Source of the DNA: Parcubacteria bacterium C7867-001
GTDB lineage: Bacteria; Patescibacteriota; Minisyncoccia; Phycocordibacterales; Phycocordibacteraceae
Reading direction: 5' to 3'
DNA length: 64,000 nucleotides
Assembly: GCA_001189095.1 (NCBI GenBank)
Contig: LFCK01000002.1
Coordinates: 65,937-129,936, forward strand
In this document: one piece after another, positions 27,328 through 46,796 of the stretch
How the letters are laid out: every line of letters starts with the position of its first letter
Numbering within the stretch: position 1 is the stretch's first letter
Program-made: the position numbers and the translations under genes
Notes under the pieces: generated by a model
Databases searched by the model: none
Told to the model about the DNA's origin: nothing
What the model saw: the letters and a program-made list of their open reading frames with translations, nothing else

Positions 27328-27363
27328 ATCGCCGCCGAGCCTTTGGCTCGGCGGCGTTTTTCT
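27328..27363. terminator. Bidirectional rho-independent terminator between convergent genes
   Basis: cgccgccgagcc-tttg-gctcggcggcg followed by a T-tract. Confidence 0.6.
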
Positions 27364-28082
27364 TAGACTGTGATGTCGATCCGGTTCACGTATCCAGCAA
27401 TCGTAGCGCTCTCCGCCTGACTGCTCCGATACCGCGAGAGGGACCGGCGCTCGGTTTCTTCCGCGGCATTCTGCAAGGTAAGAAGTATTTCGTACCCCGG
27501 ATTCCGCTTCAGGTTGTTTGCCATCCAGAAATCGAACAGCTCTTCCTGAAGTTCAGTGTGGGCGATTCCAATCTTGGTCGCTTGGATGTAGATGCTGGAA
27601 ACGTCATTCCACACACCTTCGTAGGTGACCCAACGCTTCCAATCGGCCCAAAGCACATAGAATTTCTTCTTGCGCGACAGGACGAGCGAGCGTGTGGTGC
27701 AGGACTCATCGACTGGAGCGGTGAGTCCGTCGAAGCCGGAGACTTTCTCCTGCCGTGTCGGCCACGTTTTCTGCGAAGGCATTGGTTCGAGATCGAGGAG
27801 TTTCAGGAACGGCGTTTGCGCCCCCAGTGTCTCATCGAGCTCGTATTCCATTGCCGTCGCAACGCTTTTTGGTACGACGCGTCGTGGAAGCTCAAGCGAA
27901 CCATGCTTTTGAGAAAGCAGGTCGCGAGGGCGTTCGAACCCGTCGAAACGATTTATCGAAAGACGCTCTACAGCGCTCTCTATGATGATCCGCCACTCCT
28001 GCATCGTGATAGACGATGCGCTCAGGGCTGCTTTGCCGGTGATAAAATCCGGCGTACTCACTCTCCCTCTGGTCGTAACCAT
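27363..28082 (-). CDS. Hypothetical protein
   Basis: 239-aa ORF with balanced composition. The 343-aa plus-strand ORF it overlaps is Arg-rich and judged antisense noise. Confidence 0.45.
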   Translation of the reverse strand: MVTTRGRVSTPDFITGKAALSASSITMQEWRIIIESAVERLSINRFDGFERPRDLLSQKHGSLELPRRVVPKSVATAMEYELDETLGAQTPFLKLLDLEPMPSQKTWPTRQEKVSGFDGLTAPVDESCTTRSLVLSRKKKFYVLWADWKRWVTYEGVWNDVSSIYIQATKIGIAHTELQEELFDFWMANNLKRNPGYEILLTLQNAAEETERRSLSRYRSSQAESATIAGYVNRIDITV

Positions 28083-28159
28083 CTCAGGGACTCCTTACTA
28101 GTGTTAGCGCTTACGCGCAGAACCGCAGTTCCGTCTCGGACATTACGACATAATTTGTT

Positions 28160-28198
28160 TTATGTCAAAAAGAACGCGCCCCGATATTCGGGGCGCGT
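28160..28198 (-). terminator. Rho-independent terminator for the 28206..28592 gene
   Basis: acgcgccccg-atatt-cggggcgcgt with a T-tract on the minus strand. Confidence 0.55.
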
Positions 28199-28205
28199 AG
28201 CGTAT

Positions 28206-28592
28206 TCAGACCTGTTCGGTTTCAAACACGGCGACCGCATCTTTGAGCGTCGTCGAGTACATCGGGCCGGATTCCCAGCTCATGCGTTTGCGGAGCCACG
28301 AGTTGTCGCTCAGCTTATCGATGACGATGAGATTGGCGCCGAGGCGCTGCTTGAAATACGAGTCGTAGTGCTTGGTTCTCCGTTCGGAGAACGCGGTGAG
28401 TTCCGCGAGCTCGTCGTCGGAATACTTTTCCGGCGGGCCGCTTACGGCGACGACGGACGGCAAGTCAGGACGGTCCGGTCCGGTCGTCGCAAGTCCCCAC
28501 GCCATCGAATTCGCGAGCGAAGGAATGCCGAAGCCGTATCCGCCCTCGTTCCACATGAGTTTTCCGATCAGTTCTGTACGAGACAGTGACAT
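28206..28592 (-). CDS. Hypothetical protein
   Basis: Start placed at MSLSRTELIG. A terminator lies downstream. Confidence 0.4.
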   Translation of the reverse strand: MSLSRTELIGKLMWNEGGYGFGIPSLANSMAWGLATTGPDRPDLPSVVAVSGPPEKYSDDELAELTAFSERRTKHYDSYFKQRLGANLIVIDKLSDNSWLRKRMSWESGPMYSTTLKDAVAVFETEQV

Positions 28593-28667
28593 GAATACCT
28601 CCTCAGGTCGTATGTCTGAAGAGGTTATGACACTAAATACTAACCAATGCAAGACATGGGCCTTTGC

Positions 28668-29000
28668 CTAAATGCCCACCTTCACTTTCCAATTCATTTC
28701 GATTATTGAGACGGTTATGGGGGTGGAGAATCCCGTCTTCTCTCTGAATTCTTTAATTCCCTTTTCAAATACGGCAAGCATCTTTTCTTTGTCTCCTCCA
28801 GGTATGGCGAGTGGCCCAGAGTCCACATACAGTTCGATGAGTGCGGCGCCAACACTGATGTAATTTGGACGCGCATACACGGATTGTTCTTCAAGCGGTC
28901 GCTCCGAAGCTTCTGCGGCCACCGGACACATATGTTCCGCGAGTGCGCGGATTTCTTCTTCACTCACCGACTTTTCGTATTCGATTCGTACGACTGGCAT
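28668..29000 (-). CDS. Hypothetical protein, possibly tautomerase-superfamily-like (N-terminal Met-Pro)
   Basis: 110 aa beginning MPVVRIEY. The assignment is only from the Pro1 N-terminus and size, so it is weak. Confidence 0.35.
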   Translation of the reverse strand: MPVVRIEYEKSVSEEEIRALAEHMCPVAAEASERPLEEQSVYARPNYISVGAALIELYVDSGPLAIPGGDKEKMLAVFEKGIKEFREKTGFSTPITVSIIEMNWKVKVGI

Positions 29001-29023: not shown

Positions 29024-29626
29024 CTATTCAAAACCGAAAAGGCCGCGAGGTCGGTATTGTAGCGCTTCCATCACATGAACCGCGAGCACTTCATCAGAGC
29101 CGGAAAGATCAGCGATGGTGCGCGCGACGCGCATGGTGCGATGGAAGGAACGCGGCGAGAGGTCGAGTTTATTTGCGGCCGTGAGGAGTGTTTGCTTCGC
29201 ATCGTTGGTAAAACCGGATGATTCATCCAGCTCGCGCGGCGAGAGACGCGCATTCGCAGAGTCATTTTTACTGCGCGAACGGGCGCGAGAGCGTGCTTTC
29301 TCAACACGTTCGCGAACAGTATCTGATGCTTCGCCATCAGCGAGCGAGGAGAGCTGGTCGTGCGGAATGTGCGGAACCTCAACCCAGAGATCAAGACGAT
29401 CAGCTATGGGGCGAGAAATTTTGCGCGCCTGCTTCAGTGCTGCCCGCACTGCAACTTCCGAATCCGCGGTAAGCGTGTCAGCTGGATTCATCGCCGCAAC
29501 GATCATGCAGTCTGCGGGAAAGGTGATGCTCGCTTTCGCTCGCGAGACGGTGACCACGCGGTCCTCGAGCGGTTGGCGGAGCGCTTCAAGAGCGCGAATT
29601 TCAAACTCCGGAAATTCGTCGAGGAA
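29024..29626 (-). pseudogene. comM: comM/yifB (Mg-chelatase-like AAA+ competence ATPase) 3' fragment, beginning at the Walker B box
   Basis: Similarity to ComM begins abruptly at FLDEFPEF...[14 protein letters not shown] and continues to the C-terminus. The N-terminal 16 residues of the ORF (TTG start) are element-derived. Confidence 0.8.
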
Positions 29627-29832
29627 AGCCGTCTCGCAAATACTTCCCATAAAGAAAAAAGCCAATAAATACAACGTTTTCTAGCCTTTTTCTCTGATTA
29701 TACTAGTTGTACTTGTTATACAAGTTATAAACATCATACAGAAAACGGCTTATCTAAGCCCTGCTTTGGTGCTTCTTGACAGCAGATTTATGGGAGGTAT
29801 CCTTCTCGGTATTAGCCATAGTAGTTGTTGTT

Positions 29833-30573
29833 ATGACCGAACCTGATAAAAACGTGCGCAAGCCATCACCGACGTACCTGAGCGCACCGCGCCTTGAGAA
29901 GGTGTTCGAACTTATTAGCACCCGTACCTTGAACGAAGTAAGCACGAGTTACTTCGAGCAGTATGGCTTCGGTGGCTCTGATGCTGCCCTAGCCATGGGA
30001 ACTCTCAAGTTCCTCGGCGTACTGGATGAGAACGGGAAGGCCACAGAGAAGATGCGGAGCCTTCAGTTGCGTGGAGAACCGCGTCAGAAAGCACTCCAGG
30101 AGATTCTTAAGGTTGCCTACGCGGATCTCTTCAAGACCATGCCGGAGCCGTTCAACCTCACCTCAGATGAGTTGATTAACGAGTTCATGCATCACTACCG
30201 TCTCAGCCCTCGTGTCGGGAAGCCGGCGGCGGTAGCATTCCTTAAACTTTCCGAGTTCGCTGGATGGAAGGAGCCTACCACTGCTACTCCGCGTAAGCGT
30301 GAAGGAGTTGCGTCAGCGCCGCGTGCTGCAGCGCCTCGTGGTGAAAAGCAGAACAAGGCAAAAGAGACAGACACCCCCATGATTCCGGGAGACGTTGCTT
30401 CGGTAAAACTTGCTGAAGGTAAGGTAGTCCTCTACCTCCCTCAGGAAGTCATGAACCGTGCCGTCCTTGAAGATGATCTCGGAGAAGAGTTCCGCGGGAT
30501 TATGAAATCGTTGAAGGCATTCTGCGAGAAATATATCCCTGCAACTCCAACTACCGAGACTCCTAAAGAGTAA
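29833..30573 (+). CDS. Element cargo protein, hypothetical
   Basis: 247 aa from MTEPDKNVRKP. No recognisable motif. Its GC is higher than the rest of the element. Confidence 0.5.
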   Translation: MTEPDKNVRKPSPTYLSAPRLEKVFELISTRTLNEVSTSYFEQYGFGGSDAALAMGTLKFLGVLDENGKATEKMRSLQLRGEPRQKALQEILKVAYADLFKTMPEPFNLTSDELINEFMHHYRLSPRVGKPAAVAFLKLSEFAGWKEPTTATPRKREGVASAPRAAAPRGEKQNKAKETDTPMIPGDVASVKLAEGKVVLYLPQEVMNRAVLEDDLGEEFRGIMKSLKAFCEKYIPATPTTETPKE

Positions 30574-30811
30574 ACGAAACGGCTCCCACAATGTGGAAGC
30601 CGCCTCGAGTAGTTGTTGTTTCACCCCTAACGGGGTGAGCAGTGGGCCGAGTTCAAGCGAAGGTCTCGTCTCCAAAACTGGGCCCGGGGTGCAATTCCCC
30701 CTCGGTCCACCGCTCACCTCACTAGGCACATATCTATTGTACTCAAGCCAAAAGTCCGCAAGCAAAGAGCCTGTGGACTGTCGGTTTGTTATTAGCAATC
30801 TACCCCATAAC

Positions 30812-32566
30812 TTACTTCATTTCAAATGACGTTGAAGTTAAGGACTTAGGATTTATTTTTCTCATTCTCAGTCTTCCCTCCTCATACGGAAGAGTCTTTA
30901 TGTTGAGGAACAGAGGTATGTTCTTCTGTGGAACATCTATCTGAGTTCCAGAAACTATTGTGCTAGTGGGAAACTTAAATACTACTTCTGCATAGTTATG
31001 CTTCGCATATAGGGTGATTCTCTCGACGAAGAGATGAAGAATATTTTTCTTATCTTCGTATGTGGCATTCTCCAATCGAGTGCTGACTCTTGAACAGAGA
31101 GAACGTAGAACCTGTTCGCGGTTGCCTTCGTCTTCTTTTGTTAGAAGACCCTGTTTGAGTTTCACAATCTCCCTCTCCAGTTGGTCTCGTTCTTGCCGGA
31201 AGGTGTTGTCATGCTTCTTCATGTCGTTGATATCTCCGAACTGGTCATCGAGGTAGAGGGTGATAAGTCGCTTCTGCTTGCCCTCAACAACCTCTATTTC
31301 CTTTTCACGGGCTCTTATTTTCCTTTCAATGGTGTCCTTATCCTCTTCCTTGTACCGATATCTACGGAGGGGATCATGGAGATTCTCAGGGTTCTGAAGA
31401 ATTTCCTTCAAGGTGTCCCAGATTGGAAGTAGTCTCGACTCTGCATACTGGTCACACCTTTCGCATCTCTTTGTGTTCCCTAGCGCGTTCTTCCCTCGAT
31501 AGATTCCGTTGTAGTACTTACCACTCGACTCGTCCCCATCTTTCCGACGAGGAGTCTGGTACCCACTGAACAACTTGAAGTTGCAGTACCCACAATAGAG
31601 AAGTTTTACGAACATGTACGAACGACGGGTATTCCTTTCCGAATCCTCCCTATTCTTGAGGAGTTGCTTCTTGGCCGCCTCAAACATCTCTGAGGTAATG
31701 ATTGCTGGAGCATCAAATGGAATCCAGTCCTTCTCTGGTCTCAGAAGTTTCGGGTCAATGAGACTCGTAAGGTTGTTGTACGGTCTCTTGTACTTACGAA
31801 AGTACGCTCTACCCGCATATATCTCATTTGTGAGAATTCGACCTATTGACCTCGCGTACCAGTGATTGCTCGTCACCCTCTTCCTTATCGTTTTATGCTT
31901 AGGTGCAGGCAGGTTCATTGAGTTAGCCCGGCGCTCCATTTCATGTAGGCTCAATCGTTCGTAAACGAGCCACTGGAAGAACTGACTTACCACTTCTGCT
32001 TCCCGTTCGATGATTTCCAGTTTCTTTGTTTGCTTCACGATGGTGTATCCGTAAGGAGGAAGTCCTGTCACCCACTTCCCGTCTTTCGCAGCACGAATAC
32101 GTCCGTTGTATGTTCGTTCCCTGATGACCATACGTTCGAAATCTGCGAACAGGTCAGTCATCTTCGTCATCGTGCTTCCCATCGGAGTTGCTTGGTCGAA
32201 CGGTTCTGCAACCGACTCCAGAGGAATCCCTATCTTTCGCAGTTCTCTTCTGATGAGGACTGCGACTTCGAGGTCTCTAGCGATTCGGTCTTGTTTCGCG
32301 ACCACTACCACGTCTATCTCTTTGTTGAGAGCAACGCGATACAACTCAGAGAATGCTGGTCTGTCCTGGAATTCAAGGCCGCCTGAGTATCCGTCATCCA
32401 CGAAAACATGCTCCTCATTCAAAGCGTATCCCCTATCCTCACAATATTTTCGTGTGTGGTCTTCCTGTACCTTGAGTCCGTAATGACCCTCCTTTGCCTG
32501 CTCGTCTGTCGAGACTCGAAGGTAGATTGCTGCTCTCTTGTATTTGGTAATTATTGCGTCTTCCAT
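30812..32566 (-). CDS. Large serine recombinase (integrase)
   Basis: N-terminal resolvase catalytic domain AIYLRVSTDEQ (Ser nucleophile). A ~580-aa protein with a Cys-rich zinc-ribbon region (CGYCNFK...CERC) and a coiled coil, as in phage/ICE large serine integrases. Confidence 0.88.
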   Translation of the reverse strand: MEDAIITKYKRAAIYLRVSTDEQAKEGHYGLKVQEDHTRKYCEDRGYALNEEHVFVDDGYSGGLEFQDRPAFSELYRVALNKEIDVVVVAKQDRIARDLEVAVLIRRELRKIGIPLESVAEPFDQATPMGSTMTKMTDLFADFERMVIRERTYNGRIRAAKDGKWVTGLPPYGYTIVKQTKKLEIIEREAEVVSQFFQWLVYERLSLHEMERRANSMNLPAPKHKTIRKRVTSNHWYARSIGRILTNEIYAGRAYFRKYKRPYNNLTSLIDPKLLRPEKDWIPFDAPAIITSEMFEAAKKQLLKNREDSERNTRRSYMFVKLLYCGYCNFKLFSGYQTPRRKDGDESSGKYYNGIYRGKNALGNTKRCERCDQYAESRLLPIWDTLKEILQNPENLHDPLRRYRYKEEDKDTIERKIRAREKEIEVVEGKQKRLITLYLDDQFGDINDMKKHDNTFRQERDQLEREIVKLKQGLLTKEDEGNREQVLRSLCSRVSTRLENATYEDKKNILHLFVERITLYAKHNYAEVVFKFPTSTIVSGTQIDVPQKNIPLFLNIKTLPYEEGRLRMRKINPKSLTSTSFEMK

Positions 32567-32736
32567 AACTTGTAGTACTGCTTACGGAACTTAAGCAACT
32601 CGTTTGCATCCATCTGTTCGAGAGGACTGGTAGTGATCATCACTAGTGTCCTTACCAGTTCCTCCCGTGACATGGATTCAATCTGTTGAATCGTATCCGC
32701 AATAACGTAGTCTCTTAGATCCTCGACGCTATTCAT
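32551..32736 (-). CDS. Small protein immediately upstream of and overlapping the recombinase start; possible recombination directionality factor
   Basis: 61-aa ORF. 16-nt overlap with the integrase suggests translational coupling. Function inferred from position only. Confidence 0.35.
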   Translation of the reverse strand: MNSVEDLRDYVIADTIQQIESMSREELVRTLVMITTSPLEQMDANELLKFRKQYYKLWKTQ

Positions 32737-32997
32737 TGCATGACAGCTATTTCCATATAATCGCGATGGTATATAGCGTGCTGGCGATGTAAACGATAGT
32801 TGTTAACATTTCTGGCTCCAGAATTCCTCTCTCACATAGGAACTCGTTTCTCCAGAAACGAGGGTATTGTTAAGTTGTTTACTGTCTATTGGGTTGTCTA
32901 TTGTGTTGTTCTCAATGAACACACTCCCCTACTCAAGACGAACACTCTGTATTTCCAGAACGAATATAGACGTGTTCGTTTTGAAACGACCTCTCGA

Positions 32998-33363
32998 CTA
33001 TTTTCCAGTCAGGAAGAACTTACTCGTGGAATTCTTGTGTCTCTCGACGATGATGAATCCCTTCTCTTCCAGTCCTGTGATAGCCCTCCTGACCTGTGAG
33101 ATTGAAAGCCCTGTCCCGTGATTCTTCTCTCCCACTCCGTTAACGAATTGACTGAGTGAAATCCAGTCAGACGACTTCCTGAATCCGAAAGTCTGTCTCA
33201 GGATGAAGTCGAGAACCTTCTGCTCGGAACCGGAGAGGTAGTACCAGTGTTCTTCGAGTTCGTTCGGGTACTTCCAGAAATCACTGTGATAGTTATCCTT
33301 GAACCCCTCGAACTCGTCGTGTCCCTTGAATCTATCTGCCCTAGAACGGGACATCTTCGTCAT
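32998..33363 (-). CDS. Putative winged-helix DNA-binding protein (replication/regulatory)
   Basis: 121 aa. YYLSGSEQKVLDFILRQTFG...ISQVRRAITGLEEKGFIIVER resembles wHTH replication-organiser/regulator folds. Confidence 0.4.
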   Translation of the reverse strand: MTKMSRSRADRFKGHDEFEGFKDNYHSDFWKYPNELEEHWYYLSGSEQKVLDFILRQTFGFRKSSDWISLSQFVNGVGEKNHGTGLSISQVRRAITGLEEKGFIIVERHKNSTSKFFLTGK

Positions 33364-33583
33364 CGTCAGTTTCTTCGACCTCCTCGTCTTCCTCCTCGAT
33401 TGGAACGTATACGTTGTTTCTCCAAATATCGAATCTCCAAGCCTTCGGAGTCCCGTATCTACCCTCCATTATCTGGTCGTAGTAAGTAGGATTAGCCTTC
33501 TCTAGTCTCTCCATTCTCCCCTGAAGCCACTCGTCGTACTCTGCTCGTTGACCTTTCGGTACCAGGTACTGATTGCTGCTCAT
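33341..33583 (-). CDS. Small hypothetical protein with an acidic C-terminus
   Basis: 81 aa from MSSNQYLVPKGQ. It overlaps the alternative-frame ORF 33492..33713, and which of the two is real is unresolved. Confidence 0.3.
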   Translation of the reverse strand: MSSNQYLVPKGQRAEYDEWLQGRMERLEKANPTYYDQIMEGRYGTPKAWRFDIWRNNVYVPIEEEDEEVEETDDDEDVPF

Positions 33584-33713
33584 AATCTTCTTTATTAGCC
33601 TTATAAACTGGCTCAACCTCCACGGCCAGTATCGTGTCGAAGAATTGCCGCCACATGTCAGCACGCTCGCTTTCGACAAGCATCGCGCCACCTGTTTCGG
33701 AAAACTCTTTCAT
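33492..33713 (-). CDS. Small hypothetical protein in an alternative frame
   Basis: The first ~47 aa look protein-like (MKEFSETGGAMLVESERADMWRQFFDTILAVEVEPVYKANKEDYEQQ). The remainder looks out-of-frame. A frameshift is possible. Confidence 0.25.
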   Translation of the reverse strand: MKEFSETGGAMLVESERADMWRQFFDTILAVEVEPVYKANKEDYEQQSVPGTERSTSRVRRVASGENGETREG

Positions 33714-33916
33714 AACATCAGCCTACCAAGCACTGACTTGACGGTATAGATAAAAAATGTCCCTATAGTTCCAAAAACATGGAACATTAGTTATCGAAAA
33801 AACGGCTTAAAACAAAAACGCCACGCTATCCACATGGTTTCGATGAAAGATATATAAAACCACCTACCTTACCCCTCTCGTGTAGTGGAGAGGAACGTGG
33901 GAACCCACACGAACCC

Positions 33917-34345
33917 TTATATCCCCTGCTTCTTGTATATCGTCTCCCCGTCGATGCTTATCGCGTAAATATCGAGTTGGTCTCCCACATACTCAAACAT
34001 TACAGACCAGTCGCTACGGATCATTGCACCAAAACTGTTTTGAGAGTCCACATAGGATTCCACGTTGAAAATATTCTCCCCAGCACGACTTATCTTCGCT
34101 TCAGATGATGATGGAAACTTCGCTGTCGAGGGAGACTTGAGTGCTTTCTTTACGATTGCCTGAGCATCTATGTAGGCATCTACATCCGAGTTTTCTTCCG
34201 ATTTCTGTTGCACTGGACTCGAAGTGACGGGACTAGGAGTTGAGTTCAGCATCTGCGAAGCAACCACGCAGAGGATTATAACGACCACGACCCCTAAGAT
34301 CCCCTCTTTCTTGGTGAAACCCTTCCCTGCTGGTTTGGTATCCAT
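33917..34345 (-). CDS. Membrane-anchored exported protein; possible exclusion/immunity-type cargo
   Basis: Start at MDTKPAGKGF, one TM helix and an extracytoplasmic beta-rich domain. Divergent from the XRE repressor. Confidence 0.45.
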   Translation of the reverse strand: MDTKPAGKGFTKKEGILGVVVVIILCVVASQMLNSTPSPVTSSPVQQKSEENSDVDAYIDAQAIVKKALKSPSTAKFPSSSEAKISRAGENIFNVESYVDSQNSFGAMIRSDWSVMFEYVGDQLDIYAISIDGETIYKKQGI

Positions 34346-34361
34346 GTAGAAGAATATATAA

Positions 34362-34382
34362 CAATATCCAGAATTTGGATAT
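34362..34382. promoter_or_regulatory. Palindromic operator candidate AATATCCA-gaatt-TGGATATT
   Basis: 8-bp perfect inverted arms with a 5-bp spacer in the 64-bp divergent intergenic region. An extra TGGATA half-site follows. Confidence 0.45.
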
Positions 34383-34409
34383 TGACTTCTTGGATACACC
34401 CTTTAGGGT

Positions 34410-34631
34410 ATGAAGAAGTCAGTTCACACCAAGGAGTATGCCGTCTTTGTAGACCGGCTCAAGAACGCTCGTTTGGAATCAGGACTGACTCAGGCTCAGG
34501 TGGCCAAAAAGATAGGCCGTCCCCAGTCTCACGTCTCTAATGTGGAGTCCGGTCAGCAGCGCGTGGATGTTATAGAGTTAAAACGTTTCGCCTCAATTTA
34601 CCGAAAAGATATAAATTACTTTTTAAAATGA
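34410..34631 (+). CDS. XRE-family (Cro/CI-type) HTH transcriptional regulator
   Basis: LTQAQVAKKIGRPQSHVSNVESGQQ is a canonical HTH_XRE helix-turn-helix. 73 aa. Confidence 0.8.
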   Translation: MKKSVHTKEYAVFVDRLKNARLESGLTQAQVAKKIGRPQSHVSNVESGQQRVDVIELKRFASIYRKDINYFLK

Positions 34632-35080
34632 CCATAGAGAAGTATAAGAATGTTGCTATAGGAACTCTTGCCTTACTTTTGCTTACCTCTCTGTACTTCA
34701 ACTTCGAAAATCGAACCACTTCTGCTACAGAAAAAGTAGCCACGGTTTCTCAAGATGAGTTATTTCAAAAGAAACAAGAATGTCAGGGATATCAAACCAG
34801 TATTGAAGCAAAACTAAAGACTCTAGATTTCTATAACCCGGATACCAATTACCAGACGACTCATTTCCTCAAGGAAATCTTCTTCAGCCCCAAAGCAAAT
34901 ACTTGTCTCTACATCGAACAGGAGTGGGGACTTCAAAACAACAAACTAGTTGATGAGATTTACACATTAAACGATGCTCTCACGGGAGAAATACTAACCA
35001 GTTCTATTCAAGACAAAACGAACTCAAACTATCTTCAGCAGAAACAGGGGTTTGAGGACTTTGTAAGTGAATATAAGTAA
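34628..35080 (+). CDS. Hypothetical exported/membrane protein (element cargo)
   Basis: N-terminal TM helix, low GC, 4-nt overlap with the XRE gene. Confidence 0.45.
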   Translation: MTIEKYKNVAIGTLALLLLTSLYFNFENRTTSATEKVATVSQDELFQKKQECQGYQTSIEAKLKTLDFYNPDTNYQTTHFLKEIFFSPKANTCLYIEQEWGLQNNKLVDEIYTLNDALTGEILTSSIQDKTNSNYLQQKQGFEDFVSEYK

Positions 35081-35315
35081 TATGACTCGCCGCGAAAAGA
35101 TTCTTTCCTTAGTCGTAGTTGTTCTGTCAGTTCTTCTCGTCTGGTTCGGTACTACAATCGTTCGTTTAGAGAACTATCACTACGCTGTAGAGGTGGGGAT
35201 GTGTGGTCTAGAGACAGGCTCACTGGATGAGGCAGTCGAACGACAAGAGTGTTTAAACACGACAGAGACAAGAACTAGTCCTTTCTGGCATATCTGGTAC
35301 GCACTGGCCAACTAA
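35067..35315 (+). CDS. Small membrane protein (element cargo)
   Basis: 82 aa with one TM helix. Overlaps the upstream gene. Confidence 0.4.
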   Translation: MNISNMTRREKILSLVVVVLSVLLVWFGTTIVRLENYHYAVEVGMCGLETGSLDEAVERQECLNTTETRTSPFWHIWYALAN

Positions 35316-35318
35316 ACT

Positions 35319-35549
35319 TTAGCGAAGTTCACTTCTGTTGAACTTATCGAGAAACACTCTCAAGTTCTCTCCTTTAACGCGGTAACGAGTACCATTCCCC
35401 TTCCCTAAGACCTTGGGTTTGAGTATTAGAGAGTATCTGGGGTGTTTCATGTAGTTCACCACAGACTGGTAAGTGGTGATCCAGGAGAATATCTTCTCCT
35501 TGTAGATGCGATTCGCGCTGTACCAATCGTCGTGTCTTATCTTCGTCAT
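35319..35549 (-). CDS. Excisionase-family HTH protein (Xis-like)
   Basis: 76 aa. LGKGNGTRYRVKGENLRVFL fits the excisionase/MerR-like HTH pattern (G..YR...e.L..FL). It is the last gene before the att junction. Confidence 0.45.
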   Translation of the reverse strand: MTKIRHDDWYSANRIYKEKIFSWITTYQSVVNYMKHPRYSLILKPKVLGKGNGTRYRVKGENLRVFLDKFNRSELR

Positions 35550-35716
35550 TCCTTGATGATACCAGTCCTCATTTAGAGACGGCTCTCAAAACTCTCGTCC
35601 CACAAATTGTGAGTTGGCTCACATAAAAGGCCTCTCACAAATAAAAACAGTTAAAGTCCCCCATGCGCGTGCGCGGGAAAATAGGGACTCGGAACACTGC
35701 TTTGTAAGACCAGTCT

Positions 35717-36667
35717 TAGGAAGAGAACGCCTTTGTGCGCCAGCGTCACCTCCCCTGCTCGTGGATACGTTCCTCCGCCGACGATCGCAGTGTGCGAGGT
35801 TGTGTGGTGCGGCGAACGAAACGGCGGGTAGAGAATCGCTTCTCCTGCAGGAAGCGTTCCTGCGGTCGAGTGTATCGCAGTGACTTCAAGTACTTCATCT
35901 TGTGTTAAAGGCGGAAGAATTCCAGACAGAGCTTTTGCGAGCATGGTCTTCCCTGTTCCCGGAGGGCCATAGAGCACCAGATTGTGTCGGCCAGCGGCCG
36001 CAATCTCAAGTGCGCGCTTCGCGCTCTCTTGGCCTTTGATGTCCGCAAGATTCACCGAAGGAGCTGTGCGTTCTGAAGAGATGTCACCAGTTAGCGGCTC
36101 AAGCGGCTTTGTTCCCGAAAGATGCACGACGACGTCTGCGAGTGATGTCGGCGCGTAGATGGTCATTCCGTGCGCGAGCAGCGCTTCACGTGCATTAGCG
36201 GGTGGAACGAAGACGGTCGTAATGCCTGCGCGTTTTGCTGCAACCACTTGTGGCAACACTCCGCGAACAGCGCGAAGAGTTCCGTCGAGTGCGAGCTCTC
36301 CCGCGTAGAGTGCCGCGTCTTCAGGAAGTTCGATGTCTCCTGCCGCAGCGAGATAGCAGAGCGCAAGTGGAAGATCGTAATGCGAACCCTCCTTCTTGAG
36401 GTCAGCAGGGGAAAGTGAAAGAACAATACGGCGATTCGTTGCTTTCGGCGATTTAAATCCCGCGTGACGAATTGCCGCGGCGATGCGGTCGCGCGCTTCC
36501 TCAACTGCCTTGTCCGCAAGACCAACAACAGAAAACGCGTGGAGACCACGCGTTAGATCCGCCTCAATCGTAACGAGTTCAGCTCCCGCCCCAACGGGCT
36601 GCGCTGCACCGAGTTTTGCATACCCGCCGGTGTCCTTCTTTTTCTTCGCTGCTGCCTCGTCAGCCAT
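35717..36667 (-). pseudogene. comM: comM/yifB 5' fragment (N-terminal domain plus Walker A), truncated at the Walker B box by the insertion
   Basis: GLADKAV...YGPPGTGKTMLAKA...AHKGVLFL matches ComM. The reading frame then runs 21 element-encoded codons to a stop. Confidence 0.8.
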
Positions 36668-36736
36668 GTGGTTTCTATAGTAGTACGAACAAACCCCCGA
36701 TGCACACGAGTGCATCGGGGGTTTGAACCAGGAGAG

Positions 36737-45869: not shown

Positions 45870-45941
45870 GCTCTCGTGGTGAAATGGATATCATGCCTGC
45901 CTTCGAAGCAGTTGTTGGGGGTTCGAATCCCTCCGAGAGCA
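45870..45941 (+). tRNA. tRNA-Arg (anticodon TCG)
   Basis: Cloverleaf read by eye. Acceptor GCTCTCG/CGAGAGC, anticodon loop cTTCGaa, T-arm GGGGG-TTCGAAT-CCCTC. Genomic ACCA follows. Confidence 0.7.
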
Positions 45942-46134
45942 CCAAATGAAGTTTAGTGCGTTCGAGTTTGCCTGGGAGGCAAACGTGAGGGATTCGAAAG
46001 CCGGAGCGCGTCGGCGCGAGGCGGGGTCGCGGAATTTCCCAGCAGGGAAATATCTGTGACCGAACCTCCGAGAGCACCCCAAGGGTACTTCCAATCGCTA
46101 ACCGCGAAAGGGGCGCACCAAAAAATTCCGTTAG

Positions 46135-46205
46135 TGCGGTTAGGGAGAATCGAACTCCCGACTGGTCCTTGGCAAGGACCCGTTTTACCACTAAACCATA
46201 ACCGC
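46135..46205 (-). tRNA. tRNA-Gly (anticodon GCC)
   Basis: Minus-strand cloverleaf. Acceptor GCGGTTA/TAACCGC, anticodon loop TTGCCAA, T-arm GGGAG-TTCGATT-CTCCC. No encoded CCA. Confidence 0.75.
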
Positions 46206-46396
46206 AATGGGGCGATAATAACATATCGTTCGCTCCAAAAGAAATAGCCTGTGTTTATGCCATTTCTTCAAAAACAGGCTCAAGAATAACTGTGGACAAA
46301 CATGTTCATACTGGGGATAAAGGACACATTCAAGGGTCTTGCAGCAAGGCCCGATTCTAATGAATAATGAGCAAATAAGCCGTAATTTTAAAGGCC

Positions 46397-46792
46397 GTGA
46401 ACCTAGAATCCTTTTCCACAAAAGACATAGGCAATTTAGGCGAAAAGGTCGCTGCGGATTACCTGAAGAAGCACGGATTCCGGATTATCGACCGGAATGT
46501 TGCCCGAAAAACAGGCGAACTGGATATCATTGCGCGGAAAGGGGACACGCTCCATTTCATTGAGGTGAAGGCGCTCAAGCGTCGTGAGTTTCCCGACCTC
46601 GAGCGGACGAATGATGACTACGATCCTTCGGACAACCTCCATCCCTACAAAATTCAGAAAGTAGCTCGAACGGCGGAGTGGTATGTAGCAGAAAAAGACT
46701 GGGAAGGGGACTGGCAGGTGGACGGCGTGCTGGTTTGGCTACGTGAGCGGGATGGTATGGCGAAGGTCACCTACCTCCCACAAATCGTTTAA
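46397..46792 (+). CDS. yraN: YraN-family (UPF0102) endonuclease-like protein
   Basis: GEKVAADYLKKHGFRIIDRN...GELDIIARKGDTLHFIEVK matches the YraN restriction-endonuclease-like fold signature. Confidence 0.75.
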   Translation: MNLESFSTKDIGNLGEKVAADYLKKHGFRIIDRNVARKTGELDIIARKGDTLHFIEVKALKRREFPDLERTNDDYDPSDNLHPYKIQKVARTAEWYVAEKDWEGDWQVDGVLVWLRERDGMAKVTYLPQIV

Positions 46793-46796
46793 TTGG

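Follow-up and report, generated by a model that had tools for sequence, protein, structure and literature searches.

Disruption of comM by diverse elements has been tabulated in a 2025 review (PMC12378983). In a survey by Durrant et al. (2022, PMC10083194), homologs of Mg-chelatases and ATP-dependent proteases are the most enriched target of large serine recombinases (LSRs), accounting for 12.4% of the predicted site-specific LSRs; competence genes are strongly enriched among the targets, and many divergent LSR clusters hit ComM-family genes. The Wolbachia phage WO variant sr1WO uses an LSR to integrate into a magnesium chelatase gene (PMC9203015). Disruption of comM by AbaR islands was shown experimentally in Acinetobacter to protect them against removal by transformation (Tuffet et al. 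2024, PMC11441513), and the chromosomal-curing model was proposed generally (Croucher et al. 2016, PMC4774983; reviewed in PMC12378983). A 2025 study of Patescibacteria genomic islands mentions a type I restriction-modification (R-M) island, and no integrases or comM. Described here is a 6.1-kb element that splits the comM/yifB gene in a 64,000-nucleotide stretch of Parcubacteria bacterium C7867-001 (contig LFCK01000002.1, positions 65,937 to 129,936 of the forward strand), the whole of which is called the window. The element is very probably a small site-specific integrative element of Parcubacteria (candidate phyla radiation, CPR, or Patescibacteria), and its LSR would have recombined the site on the element, attP, with an attB formed by the Walker B codons of comM.

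The preliminary description of the locus considered a serine integrase in comM unusual, a view that the 12.4% figure of PMC10083194 and the sr1WO case (PMC9203015) do not sustain. LSR insertion into comM being an established phenomenon, the window locus leaves the view of integration unchanged. What the locus adds is that the element belongs to a coherent CPR family with mostly anti-phage defence cargo. Among open-access papers and preprints, no description was found of a CPR-wide element family, of its Walker B site, attP motif or defence cargo, and no paper was found that joins Patescibacteria, a serine recombinase and chelatase/comM.

The split comM gene and its attachment sites

Both minus-strand open reading frames (ORFs) on which the preliminary description relied, 35651..36715 and 29024..29674, are present. 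The comM fragments within them and the two attachment sites are as follows.

35718..36715, minus strand: 5' fragment of comM/yifB, residues 1-333, with the ChlI/Lon-like N-domain and Walker A, ending at …HKGVLFL
29024..29626, minus strand: 3' fragment of comM/yifB, residues 332-531, from Walker B (DEFPEF) onward, plus Mg_chelatase_C
35695..35740, minus strand: attL; host half …GGCGTTCTCTTC, core CT (35719-35718), element half AAGACTG-GTCTTACAAA
29600..29650, minus strand: attR; element half TTTGCGAGAC-GGCTTTC, core CT (29623-29622), host half CGACGAATTTCCGGAG

On the minus strand, the 5' ORF reads …CAC AAA GGC GTT CTC TTC CTA, followed by AGACTGG on the element side. Past CTA it enters element sequence, AGACTGGTCTTACAAAG, and continues for 21 non-ComM codons after …HKGVLFL to a stop at 35651. 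The 3' ORF reads …GACGGCTTTC CTC GAC GAA TTT CCG GAG on the same strand; its similarity to ComM begins at FLDEFPEF, where the junction reads …TTTGCGAGACGGCTTTC CTC GAC GAA TTT CCG GAG…. Common to both junctions is TTCCT, which is AGGAA on the plus strand at 29622-29626 and 35718-35722. Excision of 29627-35722 (6,096 bp) in silico leaves a single open ComM/YifB frame of 531 aa with the full Pfam architecture (ChlI, E=1.3e-37; Mg_chelatase, E=1.3e-77; Mg_chelatase_C, E=4.4e-26). The split is precise, no bases having been gained or lost at the element ends. The earlier proposal of one comM interrupted at Walker B is thus borne out, and its boundaries, 29627-35716, were right to within the 5-bp shared core.

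The joined protein aligns to many uninterrupted Patescibacteria proteins of ~515 aa, named YifB family Mg-chelatase-like AAA ATPase at the source, with 70-79% identity over ~96% of the length. One intact ortholog, P0122 from locus L169, is 77% identical over residues 9 to 531 of joined ComM, and the alignment runs unbroken through the junction. The window and L169 are also syntenic, sharing the order NYN, a ~440-500-aa protein, dksA-like, DUF975, comM, LysM-M23 peptidase and UvrD. Since joined ComM has no match above 79% identity, the empty-site comparison is limited to the orthologous L169. In most related genomes comM is uninterrupted. The GC content is 0.40-0.50 in the element interior and 0.53-0.58 in the flanks, in agreement with the AT-rich interior reported earlier; the exception is the DUF5343 gene near attR (0.52-0.55). 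This host-like value, against 0.40-0.48 in the rest of the element, suggests that the cargo slot differs from the backbone in origin or age.

Joining the element halves of attR and attL gives the reconstructed attP, TTTGCGAGAC-GGCTTTC-CT-AAGACTG-GTCTTACAAA, an imperfect palindrome with 7 nt on either side of the central CT. The core CT corresponds to bases 1-2 of the Leu333 codon and lies within the 5 bp common to attB, which consists of the Walker B codons of comM, …GTT CTC TTC CTC GAC GAA TTT…. The predicted junction sequences are …GGCGTTCTCTTCCTCGACGAATTTCCGGAG… for attB and …TTTGCGAGACGGCTTTCCTAAGACTGGTCTTACAAA… for attP, with an identity of only 5 bp. The element ends have no long terminal direct or inverted repeats, and no second attP-like site was found in the window. 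A short core with flanking inverted motifs and without long terminal repeats is the architecture expected of a large serine integrase.

The recombinase and the other genes of the element

The enzyme to which integration is attributed is encoded toward the attR end.

30812..32566, minus strand: large serine recombinase, 584 aa, with Resolvase and Recombinase domains, YLRVSTDEQ, CxxC…CxxC and a coiled-coil-like region

Its Resolvase catalytic domain (PF00239, E=2.1e-31) spans residues 12-165 and contains the motif AIYLRVSTDEQ, in which Y15, R17, S19, T20 and Q23 are invariant in an alignment of 26 sequences. The Recombinase domain (PF07508, E=6.7e-15) occupies residues 188-305, and the match to the phrog_95 integrase (E=3.7e-91) extends over residues 8-530. 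Pairs of CxxC are found at 325/328 and 368/371. The zinc-ribbon family PF13408 does not match the window LSR at E<=0.01 and is present in the homologs P0038 and P0050. Residues 395-500 form a 105-residue stretch, 52% charged/Gln with one Pro, that is coiled-coil-like by composition. The nearest named NCBIfam relatives, CcrB, CcrC and XisF, score far under their cut-offs. The catalytic motif and the Resolvase and Recombinase domains confirm the original assignment as a large serine recombinase.

Some variation of the gene is seen among related elements of the family described in the next section. In two independent genomes (L003:9980-12154 and L004:9974-11738) the LSR is broken into two overlapping ORFs (362 aa + 227/231 aa). 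Both show an identical +1 shift of frame, which falls on the second CxxC of the zinc ribbon (residues ~357-373). A programmed frameshift, a two-subunit variant or a pseudogene state common to both could account for the split. L003 and L084 have an additional resolvase-like ORF of ~145 aa just upstream of the LSR.

The remaining genes and sites of the window element, in order from attL to attR, are as follows.

35319..35549, minus strand: 76-aa winged-helix protein of MerR/excisionase fold, conserved in the family; candidate recombination directionality factor (RDF)
35067..35315, plus strand: 82-aa protein with one transmembrane (TM) helix at residues 14-32; cargo specific to the window copy, encoded at the end of the XRE operon
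34628..35080, plus strand: 150-aa protein, hydrophobic at the N-terminus and without a family match; cargo specific to the window copy, translationally coupled to XRE by an ATGA overlap
34410..34631, plus strand: XRE-family helix-turn-helix (HTH) regulator (HTH_3, 8e-12); backbone gene, divergent from the main operon
34362..34384, strandless: candidate operator, a perfect 9-bp inverted repeat, CAATATCCA-GAATT-TGGATATTG, in the 64 nt that separate XRE from the divergent o160 gene
33917..34345, minus strand: membrane-anchored protein of ~142 aa (phrog_13160, 1e-18); the listed ORF is 160 aa from GTG at 34399
33492..33713, minus strand: small conserved ORF, homolog of the L001 49-aa ORF (40% identity, 5e-10)
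33341..33583, minus strand: conserved acidic protein of 80 aa, homolog of the L001 80-aa ORF; the real part of a listed 116-aa ORF
32998..33363, minus strand: 121-aa Phage_rep_O-like winged-helix protein (Pfam 5.7e-11, phrog_678); only the N-terminal domain is common to the family
32737..32997, strandless: 261 nt of non-coding DNA that contain inverted repeats and a 12-mer in tandem (TGTCTATTGGGT/TGTCTATTGTGT)
32551..32736, minus strand: conserved 61-aa ORF whose end overlaps the LSR start, 57-64 aa in every family member examined; second RDF/regulator candidate
30575..30607, strandless: terminator-like hairpin with a 15-bp stem, between the convergent LSR and DUF5343 genes
29776..30573, plus strand: DUF5343 protein (Pfam 8e-13), likely true start ATG at 29833; cargo slot B, between LSR and attR

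Read in the orientation of comM, the element consists of attL, the 76-aa gene, the opposite-strand operon of XRE, 150-aa and 82-aa genes, the 64-nt gap with the palindrome, the main operon, the hairpin, DUF5343 and attR. The start of the 82-aa gene overlaps the end of the preceding gene. The main operon encodes, in order, the ~142-aa membrane-anchored protein, the two small conserved ORFs and the 121-aa Rep_O-like protein, followed by the 261-nt non-coding stretch, the 61-aa ORF and the LSR. This is a phage-like switch layout, in which XRE and a palindromic operator are divergent from an operon that ends with the Rep_O-like winged-HTH gene, the 61-aa ORF and the LSR. On its repeats alone, the non-coding stretch might be proposed as a candidate origin or regulatory region.

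Most of the gene assignments made earlier from the ORF translations stand, some in sharper form. The terminal Xis-like HTH gene is the 76-aa gene, whose product has the small excisionase-type winged-helix fold (HTH_17 type) of Xis, AlpA, TorI and RdfS; the proposed XRE repressor and its operator are matched by HTH_3 and by the perfect palindrome; the winged-HTH protein is specifically a Phage_rep_O N-terminal domain; and the small membrane proteins have TM segments in the 82-aa and 160-aa products. The suggestion that the cargo serves exclusion or immunity fits the match of the DUF5343 protein to the PADLOC candidate defence component PDC-M34A (E=8.3e-16), together with the defence genes in the corresponding slots of sister elements. 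Scans for sigma-70 promoters and terminators gave no enrichment over shuffles, only the operator palindrome and the LSR/DUF5343 hairpin being noteworthy, and no convincing signal of Rep C-terminal domain remnants was seen downstream of the 121-aa gene.

None of the 10 element ORFs, nor the sister elements, matched capsid, portal, terminase, tail or lysis families of Pfam or PHROG, and a temperate prophage was rejected for lack of virion genes. Relaxase, coupling and type IV secretion system families were likewise absent by Pfam, NCBIfam or PHROGs from the window element and from the Pfam tables of the sister elements; an integrative conjugative or mobilizable element was rejected on this ground.

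Several further observations concern individual genes and the surroundings. Some homologs of the 76-aa protein (P0242, P0243, P0247) have two or three tandem copies of the domain per polypeptide. The protein encoded at 33917-34345 and that at L001:8109-8549 share a near-identical N-terminus (MDTKPAGKG/MDTKPVGK) and the TM helix, and their extracellular parts are unrelated; from these two sequences, the first main-operon gene looks like a surface-exposed domain swapped on a conserved anchor. Outside the element, the interval 27363-29000 between the comM 3' end and the LysM-M23 gene holds three minus-strand ORFs of 239, 148 and 110 aa, none of which matches Pfam; the syntenic L169 has a single 78-aa gene in that place. 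The three ORFs have host-like GC content and may represent another small insertion or an addition specific to the lineage. A four-tRNA cluster (Arg-TCG, Gly-GCC, Pro-TGG, Gly-TCC) at 45870-48324, ~10 kb away, is unrelated to the element.

A family of elements in the comM gene of CPR bacteria

Relatives of the window LSR at 41-74% identity are numerous and come mostly from CPR bacteria. The family set comprises every LSR relative with obtainable flanking DNA: L001, L002, L003, L004, L005, L083, L084, L085, L163/164, L165-167, L168, L250, L253 and L254, which with the window make 15 distinct elements. Pattern scans of genome and metagenome contigs returned mostly distant LSRs, with at least six close relatives among the matches listed, and IMG/VR contained no LSR relative above ~30% full-length identity.

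In all 15 distinct elements, whose LSRs are at least 41% identical, the LSR lies beside or between comM fragments broken at the same codon. The last residues of the 5' fragment are …GVLF(L/I), and the 3' fragment restarts at (F)(L/M)DEFPEF. Among the hosts named are Paceibacterota, Kaiserbacteria, Curtissbacteria and Saccharibacteria; one of the elements is on a closed 1.08-Mb contig. Of two LSR homologs with lower identity, L251 (40%) is not near comM and L252 (37%) is at a contig end. The element-side palindrome is conserved in the family attL/attR alignment (consensus TTTGTGGGACA … TGTCCCACAAA), its arms being symmetric at 7 nt from the dinucleotide at positions 1-2 of codon 333. Elements with a CT or TT core are always co-directional with comM, and the palindromic AT core occurs in three elements in both orientations (L168 direct; L163 and L250 inverted). 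Because the core dinucleotide is the sole polarity determinant in serine-integrase chemistry, this pattern is as predicted, within a small sample.

The conserved backbone is made up of the LSR gene, an ORF of 57-64 aa that runs into the LSR start, and the genes for the Rep_O-like N-domain, XRE and the 76-aa protein. Other family members have a Prim-Pol/AAA_25 primase-helicase in place of the Rep_O-like gene. The 76-aa gene is either at the far end of the element or directly after the LSR, two positions that are adjacent in the circular form. Delimited sister elements measure 8.7-14.6 kb, and the 6.1-kb window copy is the smallest. Cargo differs at two variable slots, slot A from the 76-aa gene to XRE and slot B from the LSR to attR.

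Slot A, L001: MORC-like ATPase, methylase and MutH-like protein
Slot A, L002: EcoO109I R-M system
Slot A, L003: HincII R-M system
Slot A, L004: C5 methylase with partners
Slot A, L163: type I R-M system
Slot A, L168: N4/N6 methylases
Slot A, L250: AlwI R-M system
Slot A, L252 (LSR of 37% identity): OLD-like nuclease and ThaI R-M system
Slot A, L254: D12 methylases
Slot A, window: small membrane proteins of 150 and 82 aa
Slot B, L001: Shedu SduA_C
Slot B, L002: XRE + M78
Slot B, L003: UvrD-like helicase
Slot B, L004: AAA_14/DUF4143
Slot B, L163: DUF5655
Slot B, L165: Schlafen/AlbA_2 ATPase
Slot B, L168: Panacea toxin-antitoxin (TA) module
Slot B, L250: DUF6119
Slot B, L253: repair/mutagenesis set with UmuD-like and Y-family polymerase genes
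Slot B, window: DUF5343

Two elements carry cargo of other kinds. A diversity-generating retroelement (DGR; bAvd + RVT_1 reverse transcriptase) is found at L165:4686-6093, and also in L166 and L167, beside AAA_5/VWA genes. The cargo at L253:13845-17433 comprises SRAP, DUF72, a Peptidase_S24 UmuD/LexA-like protein and the Y-family polymerase, with UDG elsewhere in the element; these are DNA repair/mutagenesis rather than classical defence genes.

More distant LSRs also adjoin comM. Those at 23-28% identity, from Solibacteraceae, Acidobacteriaceae and Thermoleophilia, are beside comM cut at a different conserved motif, …VAAMNP, ~residue 379, and an LSR from Chloroflexia adjoins a truncated comM whose match ends at residue 248, another break point. 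Unrelated LSR lineages thus converge on the same gene. The LSRs of 23-28% identity beside comM fragments that end at …VAAMNP were located at:

L008:9924-10967
L012:11604-12638
L031:11680-12688

Proposed mechanism, alternatives and known systems

In the mechanism favoured here, integration would inactivate ComM, as suggested by the placement of Walker A and Walker B on separate polypeptides. By analogy with AbaR islands and the chromosomal-curing model, loss of ComM would make deletion of the element, through transformation with an empty-site allele, less likely. XRE would repress the main operon through the palindrome; once this repression is lifted, the LSR would excise the element with the help of the 76-aa excisionase-like protein, the 61-aa ORF or both. 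Excision would restore comM exactly and yield a circle, which the Rep-like protein may replicate. The variable slots would serve as cargo sites, in the family usually for defence systems, and the small membrane proteins co-transcribed with XRE may act in exclusion.

Certain observations weigh against parts of this account, the first two bearing on current mobility: i) the search for an uninterrupted comM, proposed in the preliminary description, gave syntenic orthologs (70-79% identity) but no same-species empty-site allele among 5.8 billion proteins, the best intact ortholog being 79% identical; ii) a free circular copy was not found, and IMG/VR lacks the exact attP predicted; iii) what is established about ComM in transformation comes from Gram-negative models rather than from CPR; iv) the Rep_O-like protein is a 121-aa N-terminal winged-HTH domain alone, versus 177-259 aa in relatives, which makes autonomous replication of the window copy doubtful; v) the 150-aa and 82-aa proteins have no match in any searched family library (Pfam, PHROG, PADLOC, NCBIfam); and vi) DUF5343/PDC-M34A is a candidate defence component only, no other element ORF having matched PDC-M34 models.

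A broader proposal is offered tentatively, with somewhat less than even confidence. The window element might be a minimal member of a phylum-wide LSR element family with a conserved attP and the Walker B Leu codon as target; such elements might be the main portable defence carriers (R-M, Shedu, OLD, TA, DGR) of tiny CPR genomes; their reversible insertion, in bacteria believed to depend on DNA uptake, could switch the recombination of incoming DNA; and the unannotated cargo could be new defence or exclusion functions.

The alternative that survives best, though rather unlikely, is a phage satellite similar to phage-inducible chromosomal islands (PICIs) or P4. A helper phage would de-repress the XRE-silenced element, which would excise, replicate by means of Rep or the PrimPol-helicase and be packaged in helper capsids. 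The repressor divergent from an operon of a Rep_O-like or Prim-Pol/AAA_25 gene plus integrase is in keeping with a satellite, as are the 6-15 kb sizes, the defence hotspots and the lack of virion genes. Integrase, master repressor and replication modules are present, along with several small ORFs that have no annotation. Yet no terminase small subunit, capsid-remodelling or packaging-interference gene is recognised in any member, close relatives are missing from IMG/VR, there is no known helper phage, and the integrase is at the distal end of the operon, not beside the repressor as is usual in PICIs. The satellite proposal refines the route of transfer and is compatible with integration, and it is the most attractive sub-hypothesis.

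An improbable alternative is a domesticated excision switch like Listeria phi10403S in comK or the skin and SPbeta elements of B. subtilis, in which regulated LSR excision would restore comM for competence. The precise, in-frame split, with both comM halves intact once rejoined, and the conserved RDF candidates would suit such a switch, and the LSR is distantly similar to the XisF and Ccr developmental/cassette recombinases. However, comM is uninterrupted in most related genomes, the cargo turns over rapidly and has a selfish or defensive look, and both element orientations occur in the family.

There is very little probability that the element is an immobile, decayed prophage remnant, made small by the loss of virion genes. 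The PHROG matches to integrase, repressor and Rep_O, the single-domain Rep-like protein and the position of the window copy as the smallest of its family could be taken as signs of decay. But all 15 related elements lack virion genes and have a common compact backbone, and the window copy has an intact LSR and two intact att half-sites between intact comM halves. Cargo that differs at two fixed slots points to an actively evolving element type rather than to independent decay. An assembly chimera, a foreign insert joined via a short repeat, might be suspected since the window comes from a metagenome-assembled genome with an interior GC below that of the flanks, but is practically dismissed by the same arrangement in at least 15 independent assemblies, including the closed 1.08-Mb contig and assemblies from isolate-independent projects, and by junctions at one codon, where the 5-bp shared core is too short to mislead an assembler.

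The integrative element favoured here provides an entry point to an element family in CPR/Patescibacteria, whose mobile elements are poorly described. To our knowledge, natural transformation is the only established route into Patescibacteria; the defined attP/attB pairs, with the LSR and two candidate RDFs, could become genetic tools for them. The family also offers a natural inventory of the defence cargo that ultra-small genomes exchange; to this the window copy contributes three small cargo genes, uncharacterised and located where its relatives have known defence systems. It further allows a test of comM-disabling as an anti-curing strategy in a phylum believed to depend on DNA uptake.

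Several known systems resemble the window element in part. PICIs, P4-like satellites and pipolins (PMC11551731) are similarly compact; they combine modules for repression, replication and integration with variable hotspots that house defence genes. Unlike them, the window element has no packaging/hijacking genes and no PolB, its recombinase is a serine rather than a tyrosine enzyme, and its site is comM rather than a tRNA gene or intergenic region. In Listeria A118/phi10403S (comK) and in B. subtilis SPbeta/SprA (spsM) and skin/SpoIVCA (sigK), a serine-integrase element lies inside a host gene, as in the window; precise excision restores the gene and a small RDF sets the direction. Those systems are prophages or relics, in other targets and hosts, with documented regulated excision, whereas excision of the window element is a prediction.

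The closest parallels involve the ComM family itself. The LSR elements of the Durrant et al. survey (PMC10083194) share with the window element a site-specific insertion inside a ComM-family coding sequence; the available part of the survey deals with integrases and att sites for genome engineering and gives no account of element families, of CPR hosts, of cargo or of a site at the Walker B codon. In sr1WO, fragments of the target gene flank the element and XRE-type regulators lie near one end, as in the window (PMC9203015). Unlike the window element, which is 6.1 kb, has no virion genes and resides in a CPR host, sr1WO is found in an alphaproteobacterial endosymbiont and is a full tailed prophage that includes a eukaryotic association module (PMC9203015). 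AbaR/Tn6022-type islands likewise disrupt comM with a cargo island, and the proposed benefit is the same protection from transformation-mediated deletion. AbaRs are Tn7-like transposons, and the Aggregatibacter-type elements form a group on the basis of an integrase they have in common; both occur in Proteobacteria with antibiotic-resistance cargo; the window element differs from AbaRs in using a serine integrase, a different site in comM and defence-type cargo.

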